Virus record (IMG/VR): IMGVR_UViG_3300026549_000064 | Location: 21,016 to 85,015 of that record | From: a virus | Lineage: Duplodnaviria; Caudoviricetes | Length of the DNA stretch: 64,000 bases | Reading direction: 5' to 3' (one strand) | In this document: in pieces, positions 1 through 58,166 of the stretch | How the letters are laid out: each line of letters opens with the position of its first letter | Position numbering within the stretch: the first letter of the stretch is position 1 | Position numbers and translations under genes: made by a program | The notes under the pieces: model-generated | The model's input: the letters and a program-made list of their open reading frames with translations, nothing else | Told to the model about the DNA's origin: nothing | The model's database searches: none

Positions 1-25
1 TAACGTGATCTCTTTTGTCTTTCAT
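1..25 (-). CDS. Start of a hypothetical protein running off the left edge (MKDKRDHV...)
   Basis: ATG at 25-23 preceded by a GGAGG SD and downstream of the early promoter motif at 150. Confidence 0.45.
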
Positions 26-20310: not shown

Positions 20311-21969
20311 TTGCATATGAAGCAGTCGACTATGAGAGCTTTGTTTGATCTGGAAAACAAAGAGAATGAAAAAATTCAATCATTTTCAGAAACCCCAGCT
20401 GTTTCTGTTAAACCAAAAGAAGTTACTGAAGCTGAGGACGAAATAAAAGATGTAGAAGATACTGATAAAGAGGATGATAAACAATATCGCGAAGAGCATA
20501 ACGATGCTGATACTTCTGAAGAAGCTGATGCAGAGGCTTCTTCAGATATCGGAGATTCGGAAAGCTCAGATGAAGATGCTGAATCCGAAGACGATGATAG
20601 CACAGCAAGTATTTCTGAAGATTTGAATGCTACTGATGAAGATGACGATAATGATAAAAGTAAATTAGCTAAGATGTTTGACAGAATGTCGGTCAATGAA
20701 ATTCTTCATTATCGAATGATAACAATGGAGTACGGTACACAAGCTGGATCTGCAGATCCTGGCTGCATTGGTTGTTCTCGTGGTACAGCTGATGCTGCAG
20801 ACGCCGTTATTATTGATAGTGAAATAGAGCCAGCTGATTCTACAGAACCTGATACTGGTGAAGGAGACGATAGTGGAGAAGGCGGTGATACTGATGATAT
20901 GGGCGGATCTGATGATTCACTTGGCGGGCTAGATGAAGCTGCAGGCGCTGGCGGTGAAGGTGGTGGCGATACTGGTGGATCGAAAGATAATGCTGGTGCC
21001 GGTGCGGCAGATACTTCCGGTGGAGATAATGCAGGTACTCAGGGAACAGAATCGCTGTATGCTAAATTGTCATGTGTTTATGATGACTACCGTCCTAAAA
21101 AGCTTCGCAGATATAGATTAGGATTGGAAGAGTATGTCCCTACATTGCACGATCCCTCGTCGGTGGATTACGGCATTGGTGGATTTTTCAAAGACATTGG
21201 CTCGGTAATCAGTGACGCAAGTAGTGCTGTAGTAAAAGGTGTTAAAGCAACTATACCGGTAATTAAGAAATGTGCTAACCGTTTGGGAATTTTGGGTAAA
21301 CGAGCAGGTAAAGAATTAGCGACTATTAAAACTTTAGCTAAATTTTATCGTTGGAAACTTAAGAAATATCTGAGTTACATTAACGAAGATAAACTTAAGA
21401 CGATGAAAATTGAAGCATTCCCCGGTAAAGTATGGAGCGCTTTAAGTAGAGGTTGTGCTGATATTTCTAAACAGCTTGATGCTATTGACGGGCCTAAGCT
21501 TGATGGCCCTGATTTTAAGAAAATACAAAGTATTCTTATTGTTAAGTTTAAGAAAATCGGTATAAACATAGCAGCATCCGATTCAGCTAATAAATTTGCT
21601 GGACTCAATAAGCTTCGTCGTGGCGGAACCATTTATCAGCTAGGCTATGGGCCTGATGCTGTTGTTGGGTATTTTAAGGAATTAGAGTATCTTGGTGAAA
21701 TAGCTTCGCCTGAACGTGCTAAGCATTTTGCTGATATGTTCTCGTCACTTAAAAACTCTATCACGAAGTTAGTGTCTAGTGATAAAAAAGGATCCGAGAT
21801 TCACGCAGCAAGATTTTCATTTGTATCTATGTGCCGTGAAACGTTAGTTGATGTTTGTGGCGAATTAGTTAGTGATCTTGAACACGTTGCTTCGTCTTAC
21901 GAGGTTTGCATGGATACCGAGCGTGGCGATAAAGAAATGGACAAAGCTGACGGTGCAGAAGAGGACTAG
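20311..21969 (+). CDS. Putative head protein with a long acidic Asp/Glu/Gly-rich propeptide
   Basis: Low-complexity acidic N-terminal half followed by S/A/G-x-E sites (GTE, GLE) typical of phiKZ-type head maturation. Confidence 0.5.
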   Translation: MHMKQSTMRALFDLENKENEKIQSFSETPAVSVKPKEVTEAEDEIKDVEDTDKEDDKQYREEHNDADTSEEADAEASSDIGDSESSDEDAESEDDDSTASISEDLNATDEDDDNDKSKLAKMFDRMSVNEILHYRMITMEYGTQAGSADPGCIGCSRGTADAADAVIIDSEIEPADSTEPDTGEGDDSGEGGDTDDMGGSDDSLGGLDEAAGAGGEGGGDTGGSKDNAGAGAADTSGGDNAGTQGTESLYAKLSCVYDDYRPKKLRRYRLGLEEYVPTLHDPSSVDYGIGGFFKDIGSVISDASSAVVKGVKATIPVIKKCANRLGILGKRAGKELATIKTLAKFYRWKLKKYLSYINEDKLKTMKIEAFPGKVWSALSRGCADISKQLDAIDGPKLDGPDFKKIQSILIVKFKKIGINIAASDSANKFAGLNKLRRGGTIYQLGYGPDAVVGYFKELEYLGEIASPERAKHFADMFSSLKNSITKLVSSDKKGSEIHAARFSFVSMCRETLVDVCGELVSDLEHVASSYEVCMDTERGDKEMDKADGAEED

Positions 21970-52505: not shown

Positions 52506-54551
52506 CTACTTACAATTTTGTCGTGTGCACAACTGTACTTTACGCAGGGTAAGTTTACCGCCGAGACCTGCACTAGCTATGTACGGCGTGGTAAACGTGC
52601 TCTTGTCTCTCAGAAGTACGGTATACGAATATGCCTTTCTTCCGACAGTTACCTCAAGCGGTCCAGCATACGGTGACTCATCATCCAGTACCTTAGGCTT
52701 AAAGTCAGCAGTACTCTTTATTTCTGACTTAATACCAAGATCGATATTGGACAGTACAATGTTGGCGCTGTAAAGTACAATGAAGACATTCTTAGCCGCT
52801 GCTATGATCTTCTTCTTGCTATCCTCGCTGCTTAAATCAAGTGCCTTAATTGCTCTAGCAGGCAGACCGTCGATGAAAATGCCGGTAGTACTGTTAGACA
52901 GTATCAGCGACAGATCCTGAATATCGTTCGGATTAAGATAGCTTGGCAGAGCCTTCTTGTCCTTATCAGGAATAGACCAAATAGCGAAGACTGATGCCCA
53001 CAGACATCTGTTAATAGCATACAGATACTGCAGAGGATCTTTTGCCTTAAATTCGTGCTGGAATTTATGTGATAAATCAAGAGCGCTATCAAGCTCATCA
53101 AGTGTGTCTACCTGACTAGGGGCGTGACGATATCCCTCGCTGTCAGTATAAGCCACGCAGTTAGTATACTGCTGATTGAAGAGATCGATAACGAGATTTG
53201 AAATTTCAGCACAATAGGTCTGTGCAGTTGTCTTAAGAGCCGTTATTACTGACCTGCCAAGAGCTACAACATCTTCCAGATACTTTATCGGATCATCGTT
53301 AGCGTCGCTCATGCTTTCCGCTTTCTGATTGATAATAATCTGAATAGAATCATGCTGCTTGCTGGCAAGATCATAAGGCAGATGTAAAACGTGCTCTAAC
53401 TGAGCGGTGATGGTGTGTACTGCTGGTACGGTGATAGCAGTCTTATTATTATTCATGACATCCGCAACAACCTGTGCGATAGATTCAGCTGGAGTATCAA
53501 CAACGATATCTGCTGAATTTATTTCGGCTGGCGTAGGTTTGTCTGTTGCAGTCTTGGGCTTGAAATGCGTAATCAAGCTATAAAACTTGTCTGCGTGAAT
53601 AACCTTCGCATGATTGTTGCTGCCAAATAACTTCTTGATAAACTCCGCACTCTGCTCAATAATGTCTGGTGCACCGGGTTTCCAGTTCTCATTTGGATTG
53701 ACCTGCTGCGCAGGAACCGGCTGCTGTATCTCGTTAGGTCTGAGCGGTGCTGCAGTTGCTACTGCAGGCTGACTGTTATACACTGGGTTTACAGTTGCAC
53801 TGACCTGATTGCCAAGTGCTCCTGAGTCAGTCCGTTCTGCTGGATCACCGTAGATGTAGTTGATGTTAGCAGAAGCTGCATCTCTGACGGCATTCTGCTG
53901 AGGATAGACTACATTCTGAGGCTGTGCAACGCCCTGCGGATACACTACGGTCTGCTGAATCATCCCCTGCTGAGGATAAACTACATTCTGCGGCTGCTGT
54001 ACAGCGTAATTATACTGTGGCTGGACAACCCCAGGCTGCTGAACCATCATAGGCTGCTGCACTGCATACCCGTACTGCGGCTGAATTACGCCCTGCTGCG
54101 GATACACTACGTTCTGGGGCTGTACAACTACCTGCTGAGGAATGCCTCGTATCTCGATACCCTGAGCTGCCAGCTGATTAGCATACAGTGAAATCTTGTT
54201 GTGTATCCAACTAGCCAGTTCATCGCTTCCGCAGATTCTCGGTCCAAAAGTGTTACCGAGATCCATATCCCACTTACCGTTGTAGGCATCGCTCTGCAGG
54301 ATAGATGCGATTTTCTGAGCAACGCCTATGTTAAGAGCGCCGCGTGCAACATCAGCGTTAATGATCTGATCCAGCAGAGTCAATGCTCTTGATCTGTTGG
54401 TTGCTGCACTGTCAATCTGTGGCTGAGCGACGTTCATAAGTACACCCTGCTGCGGCTGGACGTAAGCATACTGAGGCTGCTGTACTACCGGCTGCTGAAT
54501 GGGAGCTCGGCCGGCATAATTAGCCTGGGCCTGATTTACAAACTGTCCCAT
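52506..54551 (-). CDS. Gln/Pro-rich hypothetical protein (phiKZ gp122-like position, 681 aa)
   Basis: QPQNVVYPQQG and QPQYxYAVQQP repeats; follows the nvRNAP beta-N gene. Confidence 0.7.
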   Translation of the reverse strand: MGQFVNQAQANYAGRAPIQQPVVQQPQYAYVQPQQGVLMNVAQPQIDSAATNRSRALTLLDQIINADVARGALNIGVAQKIASILQSDAYNGKWDMDLGNTFGPRICGSDELASWIHNKISLYANQLAAQGIEIRGIPQQVVVQPQNVVYPQQGVIQPQYGYAVQQPMMVQQPGVVQPQYNYAVQQPQNVVYPQQGMIQQTVVYPQGVAQPQNVVYPQQNAVRDAASANINYIYGDPAERTDSGALGNQVSATVNPVYNSQPAVATAAPLRPNEIQQPVPAQQVNPNENWKPGAPDIIEQSAEFIKKLFGSNNHAKVIHADKFYSLITHFKPKTATDKPTPAEINSADIVVDTPAESIAQVVADVMNNNKTAITVPAVHTITAQLEHVLHLPYDLASKQHDSIQIIINQKAESMSDANDDPIKYLEDVVALGRSVITALKTTAQTYCAEISNLVIDLFNQQYTNCVAYTDSEGYRHAPSQVDTLDELDSALDLSHKFQHEFKAKDPLQYLYAINRCLWASVFAIWSIPDKDKKALPSYLNPNDIQDLSLILSNSTTGIFIDGLPARAIKALDLSSEDSKKKIIAAAKNVFIVLYSANIVLSNIDLGIKSEIKSTADFKPKVLDDESPYAGPLEVTVGRKAYSYTVLLRDKSTFTTPYIASAGLGGKLTLRKVQLCTRQNCK

Positions 54552-54579: not shown

Positions 54580-56235
54580 TTAAAGCGGTACAAGGAGATC
54601 TCTCAGGCCCTTAATTTGTTCGTACCAGGGCATCTTCGATTCATCGAAGCATCCGTCGTCATCTATCTGTGCAAACGGATTGATGTCTCCAGCTACACCC
54701 GGGTTAGATGTACTGATAGACAGAATACTTTCGATAGCCACGAACGTAGGAGAGAATTGATGTTCCTTGTGGTTGATGGTATTGGAATCGTTTCCGGCAG
54801 GGGCACCATCTGCTTTCCTTGCCTGGAGTAATTTATGACAAAGCTGGTTGAACAGCATGTCATCGTTGTAGGCTTCAGTACCGGTAGCGATACTTTCGTC
54901 CTTGTAAATATCGTTGATTTTCATCGACGGTATACGCAGAGCATCTGCGATGTTTTTCGGTTTCAATTCTTTACCCCTTACGGCCTTGTAAATTCGATTG
55001 AATAACGTGGTCGTGATACTCGATCTCAGGAGTTTATCCACATTCCCAAGTCTCTTCTCAAACAGATTGTTGGGACTGTAATCAGCCAGCCAATTATCTA
55101 TATTGAAGAAGACAGTGATAAATAGATCAAAGATGTTCTTGATATCGATATTGTAATCTCTCTTAAACTCGTTACGGGATACAGTGTCTACATAAGTCTT
55201 CAGAGAAGCCAGATGCGATTCACCATGTCCTTTAGCCTGGTTATAAGCTATTTTCTGTCCGTAGATAATCTTGCCAATAGTGGCTACATAAAGAGGTGTA
55301 TCAAATAACTGAGCAAATTGATACTCTTTACCGCCAGATAGTTGGGCAAAGTCTTCAATGTCAGGTGCGGCTAACTTGAGTATATAAACTAAAGATGCCA
55401 CAACTCGTCTAAACGAAATGTCTGAAAACGAAGCTGCTTCACACTTAACATATATGTCAGGCAAGACAGGGAAGTACAGATATACATCGTCATCCTCGTC
55501 CGCTGTCTGACTAAGGGTAATACGTCCGCCGTAACCTAAAAGTGCCATAGCTTTAACAAGACCATACTCTGCAAGAAGATAAAGTACAAGAGGCGTACGT
55601 TTATAAATCTTGTTGGTAGAATTCTTGTAATGCGCTTTCACGGTTACGTACTTAGCACTAGTTTCCTTTCCGTGAATATCCTTGAGAACTATTTCTTCAT
55701 TTCTCCAGAAATGGAGAGGTGATCTCATAACTCTCAGCATGATTCCATCACCGGACGGTATCCTTACAATCTTGTCACAAAGTACGTGCTTGACTGCATA
55801 GGTTTTACCGTTCATGATGAGACCGTTGTTTATCCAAAACGGTAAGTACAGGGCAACGGTATATAACTCACCATTAACTCTAAACGAGTACTCTTCGAGT
55901 ATTTTCTCGTCACGTTCTATACTTACCTTATCCTTACTAAGTCCCTTGTTGATCTCGTACTTAACCTGATCAAGCGGACTCATCGTCCGATGACCAATGT
56001 ACTCAACAGTAGTCGGTTCTACATACGCAGTAGGTGCCGCATAAATAGTGGCATTCTGCTCCCTGTTCAAGTCTCTGAGTGCATCGTTAATGTACTCAAC
56101 TGCATGTCTGAACACCCGATCAACGTACTCAGGGCAACTGTTAATCAGGTTCTTGTTGTACTCAAGCAGCAACTTGTCGTTGAACTGCGGTAACTGACGA
56201 TCGATGTCGTCAATGACTTCACGTAAGCTCATCAC
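54580..56235 (-). CDS. Non-virion RNA polymerase beta subunit N-terminal part (phiKZ gp123-like)
   Basis: LYLPF...NGKTYAVKHVLCD...LRVMRSPLHF and C-terminal SPTFVAIES...NPF resemble this family; size about 550 aa. Confidence 0.7.
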   Translation of the reverse strand: MMSLREVIDDIDRQLPQFNDKLLLEYNKNLINSCPEYVDRVFRHAVEYINDALRDLNREQNATIYAAPTAYVEPTTVEYIGHRTMSPLDQVKYEINKGLSKDKVSIERDEKILEEYSFRVNGELYTVALYLPFWINNGLIMNGKTYAVKHVLCDKIVRIPSGDGIMLRVMRSPLHFWRNEEIVLKDIHGKETSAKYVTVKAHYKNSTNKIYKRTPLVLYLLAEYGLVKAMALLGYGGRITLSQTADEDDDVYLYFPVLPDIYVKCEAASFSDISFRRVVASLVYILKLAAPDIEDFAQLSGGKEYQFAQLFDTPLYVATIGKIIYGQKIAYNQAKGHGESHLASLKTYVDTVSRNEFKRDYNIDIKNIFDLFITVFFNIDNWLADYSPNNLFEKRLGNVDKLLRSSITTTLFNRIYKAVRGKELKPKNIADALRIPSMKINDIYKDESIATGTEAYNDDMLFNQLCHKLLQARKADGAPAGNDSNTINHKEHQFSPTFVAIESILSISTSNPGVAGDINPFAQIDDDGCFDESKMPWYEQIKGLRDLLVPL

Positions 56236-56313
56236 AACTCCTAGGTTAGTTATGTAAACTTCATATTCTATATGCCAGTTACATAATAAATAACAGATAA
56301 AGATTATAATTTT

Positions 56314-56438
56314 ATATTAAGTGGCTACCCTAATATTTAATTAACCTTTACATAGAGTCATATCTTACTTTTCGAGTGGCTACCTCTACATTTGTAAGCC
56401 TTATAGTCTCTTCACGATGGCTACTCGTGTCTGAGACT
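56314..56438 (-). promoter_or_regulatory. Three hairpins sharing the loop GUAGCCA
   Basis: Loops at 56322-28, 56377-83 and 56418-24, each closed by a different complementary stem. Confidence 0.6.
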
Positions 56439-56469
56439 CCTCTTGTTATTTATTTAGTAACTAACTTAT

Positions 56470-58091: not shown

Positions 58092-58118
58092 GTAATATAT
58101 ATCTGAAAGACTAATGAA
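58092..58118 (-). promoter_or_regulatory. Early promoter TTCATTA-N10-TATATATTAC
   Basis: Exact phiKZ early consensus. Confidence 0.7.
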
Positions 58119-58166
58119 TGAAAAATACCAGTTCTCCGTCTTTGGAGAACTGGTATCGTTAAAAAA

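Follow-up and report, generated by a model that had tools for sequence, protein, structure and literature searches.

What is the role of three hairpins that differ in their stems, share one loop and lie directly before a gene for a putative RNA polymerase (RNAP) subunit? This question is raised by positions 21,016 to 85,015 of the IMG/VR record IMGVR_UViG_3300026549_000064, a 64-kb stretch of Caudoviricetes DNA from an 85-kb contig, which is referred to here as the window and to which all coordinates refer unless another record is named. On the minus strand of a 234-nt spacer at 56236–56469, the heptamer GUAGCCA occurs three times, with copies starting at 56424, 56383 and 56328. The element and its neighbouring genes are all encoded by the minus strand. 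The original prediction, made from the letters alone, had placed three hairpins with different stems and an identical GUAGCCA loop at this site, and the minus strand reads as described, with the following features:

56274..56465, minus strand: the whole structured element, 192 nt, a domain closed by helix P1 with three GUAGCCA-capped arms
56405..56438, minus strand: hairpin H1, AGUCUC-aga-CACGA-GUAGCCA-UCGUG-aa-GAGACU, with the loop at 56418–56424, an inner stem of 5 bp (A-U closing pair) and an outer stem of 6 bp
56364..56398, minus strand: hairpin H2, GAG-GUAGCCA-CUC, with a 3-bp stem, the loop at 56377–56383 and possibly an outer stem of 5 bp (CUUAC/GUAAG) beyond an internal loop
56297..56351, minus strand: H3 arm, AUAUUAGG-GUAGCCA-CUUAAUAU, with an 8-bp stem that includes one G.U pair and the loop at 56322–56328

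The minimum-energy fold of the spacer has a z-score of −3.2. In H3, the inner stem is lengthened by 13 further pairs, and the arm has the outer helices GUAAAGGUUA/UAAUCUUUAU and AUU/AAU. When H2 is folded alone (35 nt), the minimum-energy fold is the structure given above, at −4.6 kcal/mol.

The arrangement is not expected by chance. In none of 1000 first-order Markov versions of the window, with both strands counted, was an identical 7-nt loop present three times on stems of at least 3 bp within 150 nt, and the real window has exactly one such triple. GTAGCCA itself is found at 15 sites in the window, as compared with 6.3 expected, and stems of at least 3 bp flank three of these, all in the array. 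The genome-wide search for a stem-borne GTAGCCA that had been recommended with the prediction revealed no further exact case in the 85-kb contig, leaving the array as the sole one. A weaker AUAGCCA variant had also been pointed out at ~18.2 kb; with its stem of 3 bp and one mismatch in the loop, it belongs to a set of nine such sites in the contig and is indistinguishable from chance. The site, at ~18.26 kb, is not among the hits listed at E values up to 10 for the covariance model described below.

Direct repeats in the element are limited to the loop with two to three flanking bases (a two-copy 19-nt family, 79% identity). ToxI-like RNAs of type III toxin-antitoxin systems and CRISPR-like repeats need near-identical full units, whereas the stems of the array differ.

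A conserved loop on covarying stems

Searches with the protein encoded downstream of the spacer, a predicted homolog of phiKZ gp123, revealed three more lineages in which the genes are arranged in the same way; they are represented by the records L103/L104, L105/L106 and L001/L002/L107, in which this protein is 80, 71 and 69% identical, respectively. In all three, the spacer is 209–246 nt long and includes hairpins of the motif (two to four per lineage). L103 has GUAGCCA loops on stems of 10, 8 and 7 bp and a GUAUCCA loop on a 6-bp stem, L001 and L107 have three GUAGCCA loops (on stems of 6, 8 and 7 bp in L001), and the two hairpins of L105 have the loops GUUGCCA and GUUGCUA. Two other records considered as extra lineages, P0023 and P0024, encode unrelated proteins and were set aside.

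Alignment of 13 hairpins by their loops gave the consensus G-U-(A/U)-(G/U)-C-(C/U)-A (G-U-W-K-C-Y-A), in which G1, U2, C5 and A7 are invariant. The loop-closing pair is G-C in 11 of the hairpins and A-U in two, and the second pair from the loop is G.U in seven, G-C in four and A-U in two. In both loop-adjacent pairs, the purine is always on the 5' side and the pyrimidine always on the 3' side. Almost no stem sequence is common to the 13 hairpins; the core of H1, GAGUAGCCAUCGU, reappears in hairpin H2 of L103. The suggestion that a fixed loop is carried on compensating stems was borne out, as 90.1% of the stem cells pair across the 13 hairpins against 65.2% in shuffles (none of 500 shuffles reached 90.1%) and the loop is retained. 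Stem cells with a double change number 25, as compared with 10.3 in the shuffles, and in slid controls, with the partner moved by 1–3 columns, 34–50% of the cells pair. Inside the folded element, the single difference between L107 and L001 converts an A-U pair to G.U.

A covariance model built from the relatives only ranks the hairpins of the window 1–3, at 29.2, 15.0 and 14.2 bits, with the next hit at 11.5 bits (128 kb searched); H3 has the best score, 29.2 bits, and H2 scores 15.0 bits. A covariance hit of 15.9 bits in a distant relative, L109, is a GC-rich terminator with a GCAA tetraloop and was rejected as a motif hairpin. Between the last loop and the start codon of the downstream gene there are 96 nt in the window and in L001 and 97 nt in L103, while the number of hairpins (2–4) and the spacing of the loops (32–55 nt) both vary between lineages. 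The element is a conserved, sense-strand, loop-centred RNA structure with stem covariation. Three of its features were absent from the original prediction, namely a helix, P1, that closes the array, the variable number of hairpins (2–4), and a slight variation of the loop in one lineage.

Conservation upstream of gp123 orthologs, which had been proposed as a check, was found in part. The three close lineages (69–80% identity) have the hairpins in the same spacer, so the lack of conservation in relatives that had been named as a refutation was not seen. phiKZ and the relatives at 29–38% identity do not have them. In the latter, 12–60 nt separate the two genes (the same genes where this was tested, in L108 and L109), phiKZ has 9 nt between gp122 and gp123, and a 235-nt spacer in L110 (31% identity) holds no such hairpin. 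Thus, the motif is not general to gp123 orthologs, and the element is a clade-specific insert of ~200 nt between a gene with an early-type promoter and the gp123 homolog.

No second copy of the element was found in the window, the 85-kb contig or the flanks of the relatives (129 kb), and a genome-wide regulatory motif was ruled out on this basis. Likewise, GGTAGCCAC is confined to this spacer in relative records of 85.6 kb and 43.7 kb. The single-copy status refers to the sequence so covered, a related record being 30% complete according to CheckV. A scan of IMG/VR with a two-loop pattern returned 96 stretches, with real hairpins only in a known relative. No match to Rfam 15 was found in the spacer of the window at E values up to 10 or in those of L001, L103 and L105 at E values up to 5. 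A full-text literature search on the loop sequence and its 9-mers gave irrelevant matches only, and the text of the phiKZ differential RNA-seq paper nowhere mentions gp123 (PHIKZ123), hairpins or stem-loops.

Selection on the sense strand

The minimum-energy folds of the four lineages include 41 G.U pairs and no A.C 1x1 mismatch. Mismatches of both types would accumulate in a DNA palindrome or a neutral inverted repeat; the G.U-only asymmetry is a signature of selection acting on the sense RNA. The sense fold is more stable than the antisense fold in all four lineages, by 6.2 kcal/mol in the window (−53.6 against −47.4 kcal/mol), 6.5 in L103 (−56.9/−50.4), 13.8 in L105 (−56.6/−42.8) and 32.5 in L001 (−74.9/−42.4). 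The minus-strand (sense) RNA is thus the favoured molecule, as had been proposed, and hairpins of single-stranded DNA (ssDNA), which had been named as an alternative, are disfavoured by the G.U-only asymmetry.

An element that acts at the DNA level could also take the form of an N4-type ssDNA hairpin promoter or origin, a cruciform, a set of repeats for a DNA-binding protein, or an invertible segment resembling a miniature inverted-repeat transposable element (MITE). In the window, the array is bracketed by the inverted repeat I1 (26 nt, 81% complementarity), the 3' arm of which is similar to the early-promoter motif; compared with the distant relatives, the element is an insertion; and an unrelated phage group has GGGGGTAGCCACTTTT as a fixed intergenic DNA-like motif. 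These observations would fit a DNA site. However, all 41 non-Watson-Crick pairs are sense-strand G.U pairs, the antisense strand folds much less well, and the bracketing repeat of L001 matches at 15 of 19 positions as DNA and pairs fully as RNA. A scan of bacterial genomes for three such loops returned at least 120 stretches and, among the matches listed, only chance hits and one tandem repeat. N4-type promoters have 3-nt loops on 5–7-bp stems, unlike the 7-nt loops and G.U-only asymmetry seen here, and an element present at the same site in all lineages, in a single copy in the searched part of each genome and with a repeat that is imperfect as DNA in L001, differs from a MITE or an inverton. 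We therefore regard an action at the DNA level as very improbable.

The unrelated phage group is represented in IMG/VR by L018, L023, L036 (8184–8225, 9637–9720, 10799–10917), L044 (799–4666), L045, L092, L097 and L102. These contigs encode a DnaB-like helicase, an amidoligase and a gamma-glutamyl cyclotransferase. Their intergenic arrays consist of 2–5 copies, 31–61 nt apart, of the fixed 16-nt GGGGGTAGCCACTTTT(T)G, and clusters of a variant, GGGTAGCCAGTT[AT]T, are also present; the motifs are co-oriented with the downstream genes. As no fold signal was obtained (z = −0.2 and −0.8), this motif was rejected as an instance of the same element, and it is probably a promoter or an operator/iteron DNA site.

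A helix that closes the array

The three arms are enclosed by a long-range helix, which is followed by a short conserved tail:

56444..56465, minus strand: 5' strand of P1, GUUAGUUAC-ua-AAUAAAUAACA, which pairs with 56274–56295
56274..56295, minus strand: 3' strand of P1, UGUUAUUUAUU-au-GUAACUGGC, AU-rich, the better conserved strand (GUUAWUUAUUA), resembling the early-promoter motif
56259..56274, minus strand: 3' tail, a hairpin CAUAU-AGA-AUAUG within the 14-mer UAUAGAAUAUGAAG, containing TATG

P1, 13–22 bp long in three lineages, consists of 9+11 bp in the window, as compared with 19 bp in L001 and 9+4 bp in L103; a stalk for RNase III would be expected to have about two turns (at least 20 bp) of mostly regular double-stranded RNA around the excised RNA. 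Its 5' strand has drifted through pairing-preserving transitions, as seen in L001, where A-to-G changes relative to the window keep G.U pairing with the unchanged 3' strand. The same architecture was obtained in the independent folds of L001 (z = −5.2) and L103 (z = −0.8, which alone is not significant). In a whole-spacer alignment with MAFFT and RNAalifold, the 5' part was misaligned and P1 was not recovered; hence P1 rests on three independent single-sequence folds. L105 has no equivalent of P1 and is differently organised, with a terminator-like hairpin first. This hairpin, at 2802–2823 of L105, is a perfect 9-bp stem with a UGCA loop followed by UUAUAUCU, and may be a leaky terminator without counterpart in the other lineages. 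An alternative pairing in the window (repeat I7) makes the 5' arm complementary to the region just before the Shine-Dalgarno sequence of the downstream gene; none was seen by eye in L103.

Directly 3' of the element, the window, L001 and L103 have the same 14-mer, TATAGAATATGAAG, of which the window contains no second copy, and the hairpin of the 3' tail (ARA triloop) has been retained in L001 and L105 through wobble or compensatory changes. The late-promoter element of phiKZ resembles TATG (PMC7598289). The 14-mer could be a second promoter for the polymerase gene, one dependent on the non-virion RNAP (nvRNAP).

P1 might alternatively serve as a processing stalk by which RNase III or a similar enzyme releases an array of ~150–190 nt from the early transcript, to act in trans as a sponge or decoy for an RNA-binding protein of the host or phage or as a multi-seed antisense RNA. 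Long bracketing helices are the classical RNase III stalks of rRNA operons and T7 early RNA, and in three lineages (window, L001 and L103) P1 brackets the array in full. The array also lies directly after a stop codon, as do many small RNAs derived from 3' untranslated regions (UTRs). Tandem hairpins with different stems and one short loop motif are likewise known from CsrB, RsmY and RsmZ and from the Cuckoo RNAs (CcsR, alpha-r14), the latter being located directly downstream of a protein gene and processed from its transcript.

However, the GUAGCCA-type loops contain neither the GGA (ANGGA) of the Csr/Rsm RNAs nor the CCUCC anti-Shine-Dalgarno motif of Cuckoo/CcsR, which speaks against both a sponge and an antisense RNA, and no complementary targets were found among 63 start regions of the contig. 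The translation start regions of these 63 genes show no excess of the loop complement: the full 7-mer complement is present in none of them (search of the 85-kb contig, ~30% of the genome), and the best duplex scores −12.0 against a shuffled mean of −12.5, with 61% of the shuffles as good. An excess of the 6-mer TGGCTA in the start regions is explained by four genes that begin ATG-GCT-A. Unlike sponge or Cuckoo RNAs, the array occupies a single locus in each genome, at a fixed place before one gene. The distance of 96–97 nt to the start codon, being fixed, suggests a cis link to the downstream gene, and also argues against excision. Release of a trans-acting RNA is, in our assessment, unlikely.

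The surrounding genes and the predicted early operon

The array had been placed between an early gene and the gene for the N-terminal part of an nvRNAP beta subunit. This placement agrees with the features found on either side of the spacer:

54580..56235, minus strand: downstream gene, the gp123 homolog, with a likely true start ATG at 56232 and a protein beginning MSL
56238..56242, minus strand: Shine-Dalgarno sequence AGGAG of the gp123 homolog, CCUAGGAGUU in the window and L001, UAGGAGUU in L103
56470..58047, minus strand: upstream gene, 525 aa, encoding an N-terminal domain, a long coiled coil rich in E, R and K, and a hydrophobic C-terminus
58092..58101, minus strand: early-type promoter motif TATATATTAC of the upstream gene, preceded by a terminator (hairpin and T run) at 58124–58157

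The product of the downstream gene matches PHROG 2943 ('polymerase'). A profile built from it and covering 18 relatives matches AR9 nvRNAP beta (7S00_c, E 6e-31) and PHIKZ123 (7OGP_E, E 6e-30) in PDB, and by BLASTP it is 21% identical to phiKZ gp123 over 478 residues (E 7e-9). Based on these similarities, the gene is assigned as a homolog of phiKZ gp123 and of the N-terminal part of the AR9 nvRNAP beta subunit. A conserved C-terminal motif of the gp123 homolog, NHKEHQFSPTFVA.ES..S.SNPGVAGD, is also found in two Logan contigs, L235 (106–1191) and L236 (89–1081), where unrelated proteins of 330–361 aa include a near-identical stretch of ~45 aa; this copy may be a captured fragment or a common interaction motif.

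The gene that follows the gp123 homolog (52506–54551, minus strand) encodes a 681-aa protein with no family match and a weak similarity to phiKZ gp124 (E 0.016). The two proteins occupy the same gene position and both have Q/P-rich N-terminal parts. With the similarity at E 0.016, the 681-aa product is treated as a positional counterpart only and was not called as a polymerase subunit or as the second half of beta.

The 525-aa product of the upstream gene has no match in Pfam or PHROG and no BLASTP similarity to phiKZ gp122. It is 52% identical to its counterpart in L103 and 22–23% identical to those in L108 and L109, and the gene adjoins the gp123 homolog in most relatives checked (homology was tested in L103, L108 and L109). 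A protein of this type, also encoded at 1333–2988 of L108 and 1534–2964 of L109, precedes the gp123 homolog over a range of polymerase identity from 80% to ~36%.

Five exact copies of TATATATTAC are present in the window, with minus-strand 5' coordinates 58101, 47608, 41343, 2239 and 159, and L103, L001 and L107 retain the motif upstream of their orthologs of the gene. A second motif class, TATATATATCAT, is found upstream of other small genes. The early promoters in jumbo phages that encode RNAPs are AT-rich and ~10 nt long (PMC7598289), and TATATATTAC is likely to be the promoter motif of the early (virion) RNAP. A terminator scan found none inside 56236–56469, no T run follows any of the three hairpins, and the array does not fit an intrinsic terminator, i.e. 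a GC-rich hairpin with a U tract. With no terminator in the spacer and a conserved early promoter upstream, transcription is expected to read through into the polymerase gene, and an early transcript would span the hairpins and continue into the gp123 homolog.

An operon spacer of this kind could be a pure processing or stability module, in which the hairpins are either cut by an endonuclease or protect 3' or 5' ends, so that the upstream early message and the polymerase message decay independently. The intercistronic position of the array, in a spacer without a terminator, and its long, composite stems would fit such a role. The rplL-rpoB region of Escherichia coli, with an attenuator and an RNase III site, is likewise a structured spacer of ~200–300 nt before an RNAP beta-type gene in an operon. 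It has, like the RNase III sites of T7 early RNA, a long helix suited to RNase III, of which P1 may be a counterpart, but neither it nor the T7 sites have a repeated loop motif or homology to the array. Protective hairpins need no invariant loop, whereas here the loop is conserved and the stems drift; several redundant cleavage sites would be unusual; and no nuclease candidate was identified. We accordingly attach little credence to processing or stability as the sole function.

A possible operator for a polymerase gene

The reading that we put forward, tentatively, is that the array is a multivalent, loop-specific operator or processing platform in an early mRNA and controls the expression of an nvRNAP subunit. 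An early sense transcript would start at the TATATATTAC promoter at ~58100 and run through the 525-aa gene into the gp123-type gene. Within it, the AU- and G.U-rich P1 would close a domain in which two to four arms each present the same heptaloop. One loop-specific trans-acting factor may dock at each of the repeated loops; this is most probably an RNA-binding protein that is dimeric, oligomeric or cooperative. The array would thereby be an intercistronic operator that sets the amount or timing of the downstream nvRNAP subunit, by repressing or activating its translation or by stabilising the mRNA or directing its cleavage, possibly in an autogenous manner.

That a trans-acting factor reads several loops at once is suggested by the combination of an invariant loop and a stem top of conserved polarity with free stems, variable copy number and a single gene-linked site. 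The copy number of 2–4 and the loop spacing of 32–55 nt point to redundant binding modules rather than to one precise tertiary fold. By analogy, a single dedicated site beside one gene would follow the usual pattern for a gene-specific operator. We infer a protein partner, transcription of the region in an early operon and control of the nvRNAP as the output; the roles in processing, antitermination, mRNA localisation or an early-to-middle switch that had been suggested for the array are likewise conjectural.

The iron-responsive elements (IREs), five of which are present in the 3' UTR of the transferrin receptor, the Smaug recognition element (SRE) and the MS2 and PP7 operators are similar to the array in having a fixed loop on unrelated stems within one mRNA. 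At IRE-type sites, recognition involves the loop and the top of the stem, as proposed here, and the copy number is variable, as it is in the array. These systems are eukaryotic or from ssRNA phages and have no sequence relation to the array, which is additionally closed by a long-range helix. The boxB hairpin of lambda nut and the put sites of HK022 are hairpins of phage early transcripts that act in processive antitermination; a factor, or the polymerase itself, recognises their loops, and downstream transcription is altered. However, boxB has one 5-bp stem, capped by a GNRA-like pentaloop, beside boxA, and put consists of two specific stem-loops, whereas the array has 2–4 heptaloops on stems of 3–10 bp and the transcribing enzyme would be a multisubunit phage RNAP. 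Antitermination at nut also involves an arginine-rich protein of the N type and downstream terminators that are read through; in the sequence covered, ~30% of the genome, no terminator separates the array from the next gene. A boxA was not seen, and no search aimed at it was made.

The factor might instead belong to the translation apparatus, if the loops pair with tRNA or rRNA or mimic an anticodon or acceptor (e.g. loop GCC or GCU with the tRNA-Ala anticodon). The loop has 7 nt with U at position 2, as anticodon loops do, its variants GCC and GCU are synonymous alanine codons, and the contig encodes 12 tRNAs. On the other hand, the equivalents of positions 32 and 37 (G and C) are atypical of anticodon loops, the GUAUCCA variant breaks the alanine triplet, and the full loop complement is present in none of the 12 phage tRNAs, the best match being a 6-mer in the D-loop of tRNA-Trp at chance level. 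ARAGORN found no tRNA or transfer-messenger RNA in the window and Rfam gave no match in the spacer, so the array is not recognised as a tRNA or tRNA-like element. Such pairing or mimicry is extremely improbable in our view. The 12 tRNA genes are located upstream of the window, at G000:C1:13757-16319, and have encoded CCA ends; one tRNA-Ser has the unusual anticodon ACU.

Several points weigh against a loop-specific operator. H2 is the weakest arm, thermodynamically marginal and missing from the minimum-energy fold of the whole spacer. Neither of the two co-inherited neighbour proteins has a recognisable RNA-binding domain, and no binding partner was identified. The bracketing by P1 would also be compatible with the array being excised as a free RNA, a terminator-like hairpin lies 5' of the two motif hairpins of L105, and the promoter-like GTTATTTATTA with TATG 3' of the array could start a polymerase transcript that does not include the hairpins. 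The comparison covers four lineages in all, and the searched sequence is ~30% of the genome. A small gene downstream of the operon was considered as a candidate binder and rejected, as it is not conserved between lineages.

A more specific form of the operator model is possible, though doubtful. In this form, the array would represent an undescribed RNA family of uncultivated phiKZ-like jumbo phages, in which a helix-bracketed GUAGCCA platform recruits a dedicated factor, such as a polymerase subunit or assembly or the upstream coiled-coil protein, gates the synthesis of the nvRNAP and so acts as an RNA-level timer of the early-to-late switch.

Significance

The principle of an array of hairpins with the same loop is already known from IREs, Csr/Rsm and Cuckoo RNAs and boxB; here, an undescribed RNA motif is found in a new biological place. 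The element is a well-founded candidate regulatory RNA. Once a binder is found, the invariant 7-nt loop on freely varying stems would provide a compact RNA tag. Jumbo phages with multisubunit RNAPs of their own inject a virion enzyme and switch from it to a newly made non-virion one, and to our knowledge it has not been established how the amount and timing of the latter are controlled. A conserved, gene-specific RNA element before the gene for an nvRNAP subunit would offer a concrete and cheaply testable handle on that control.

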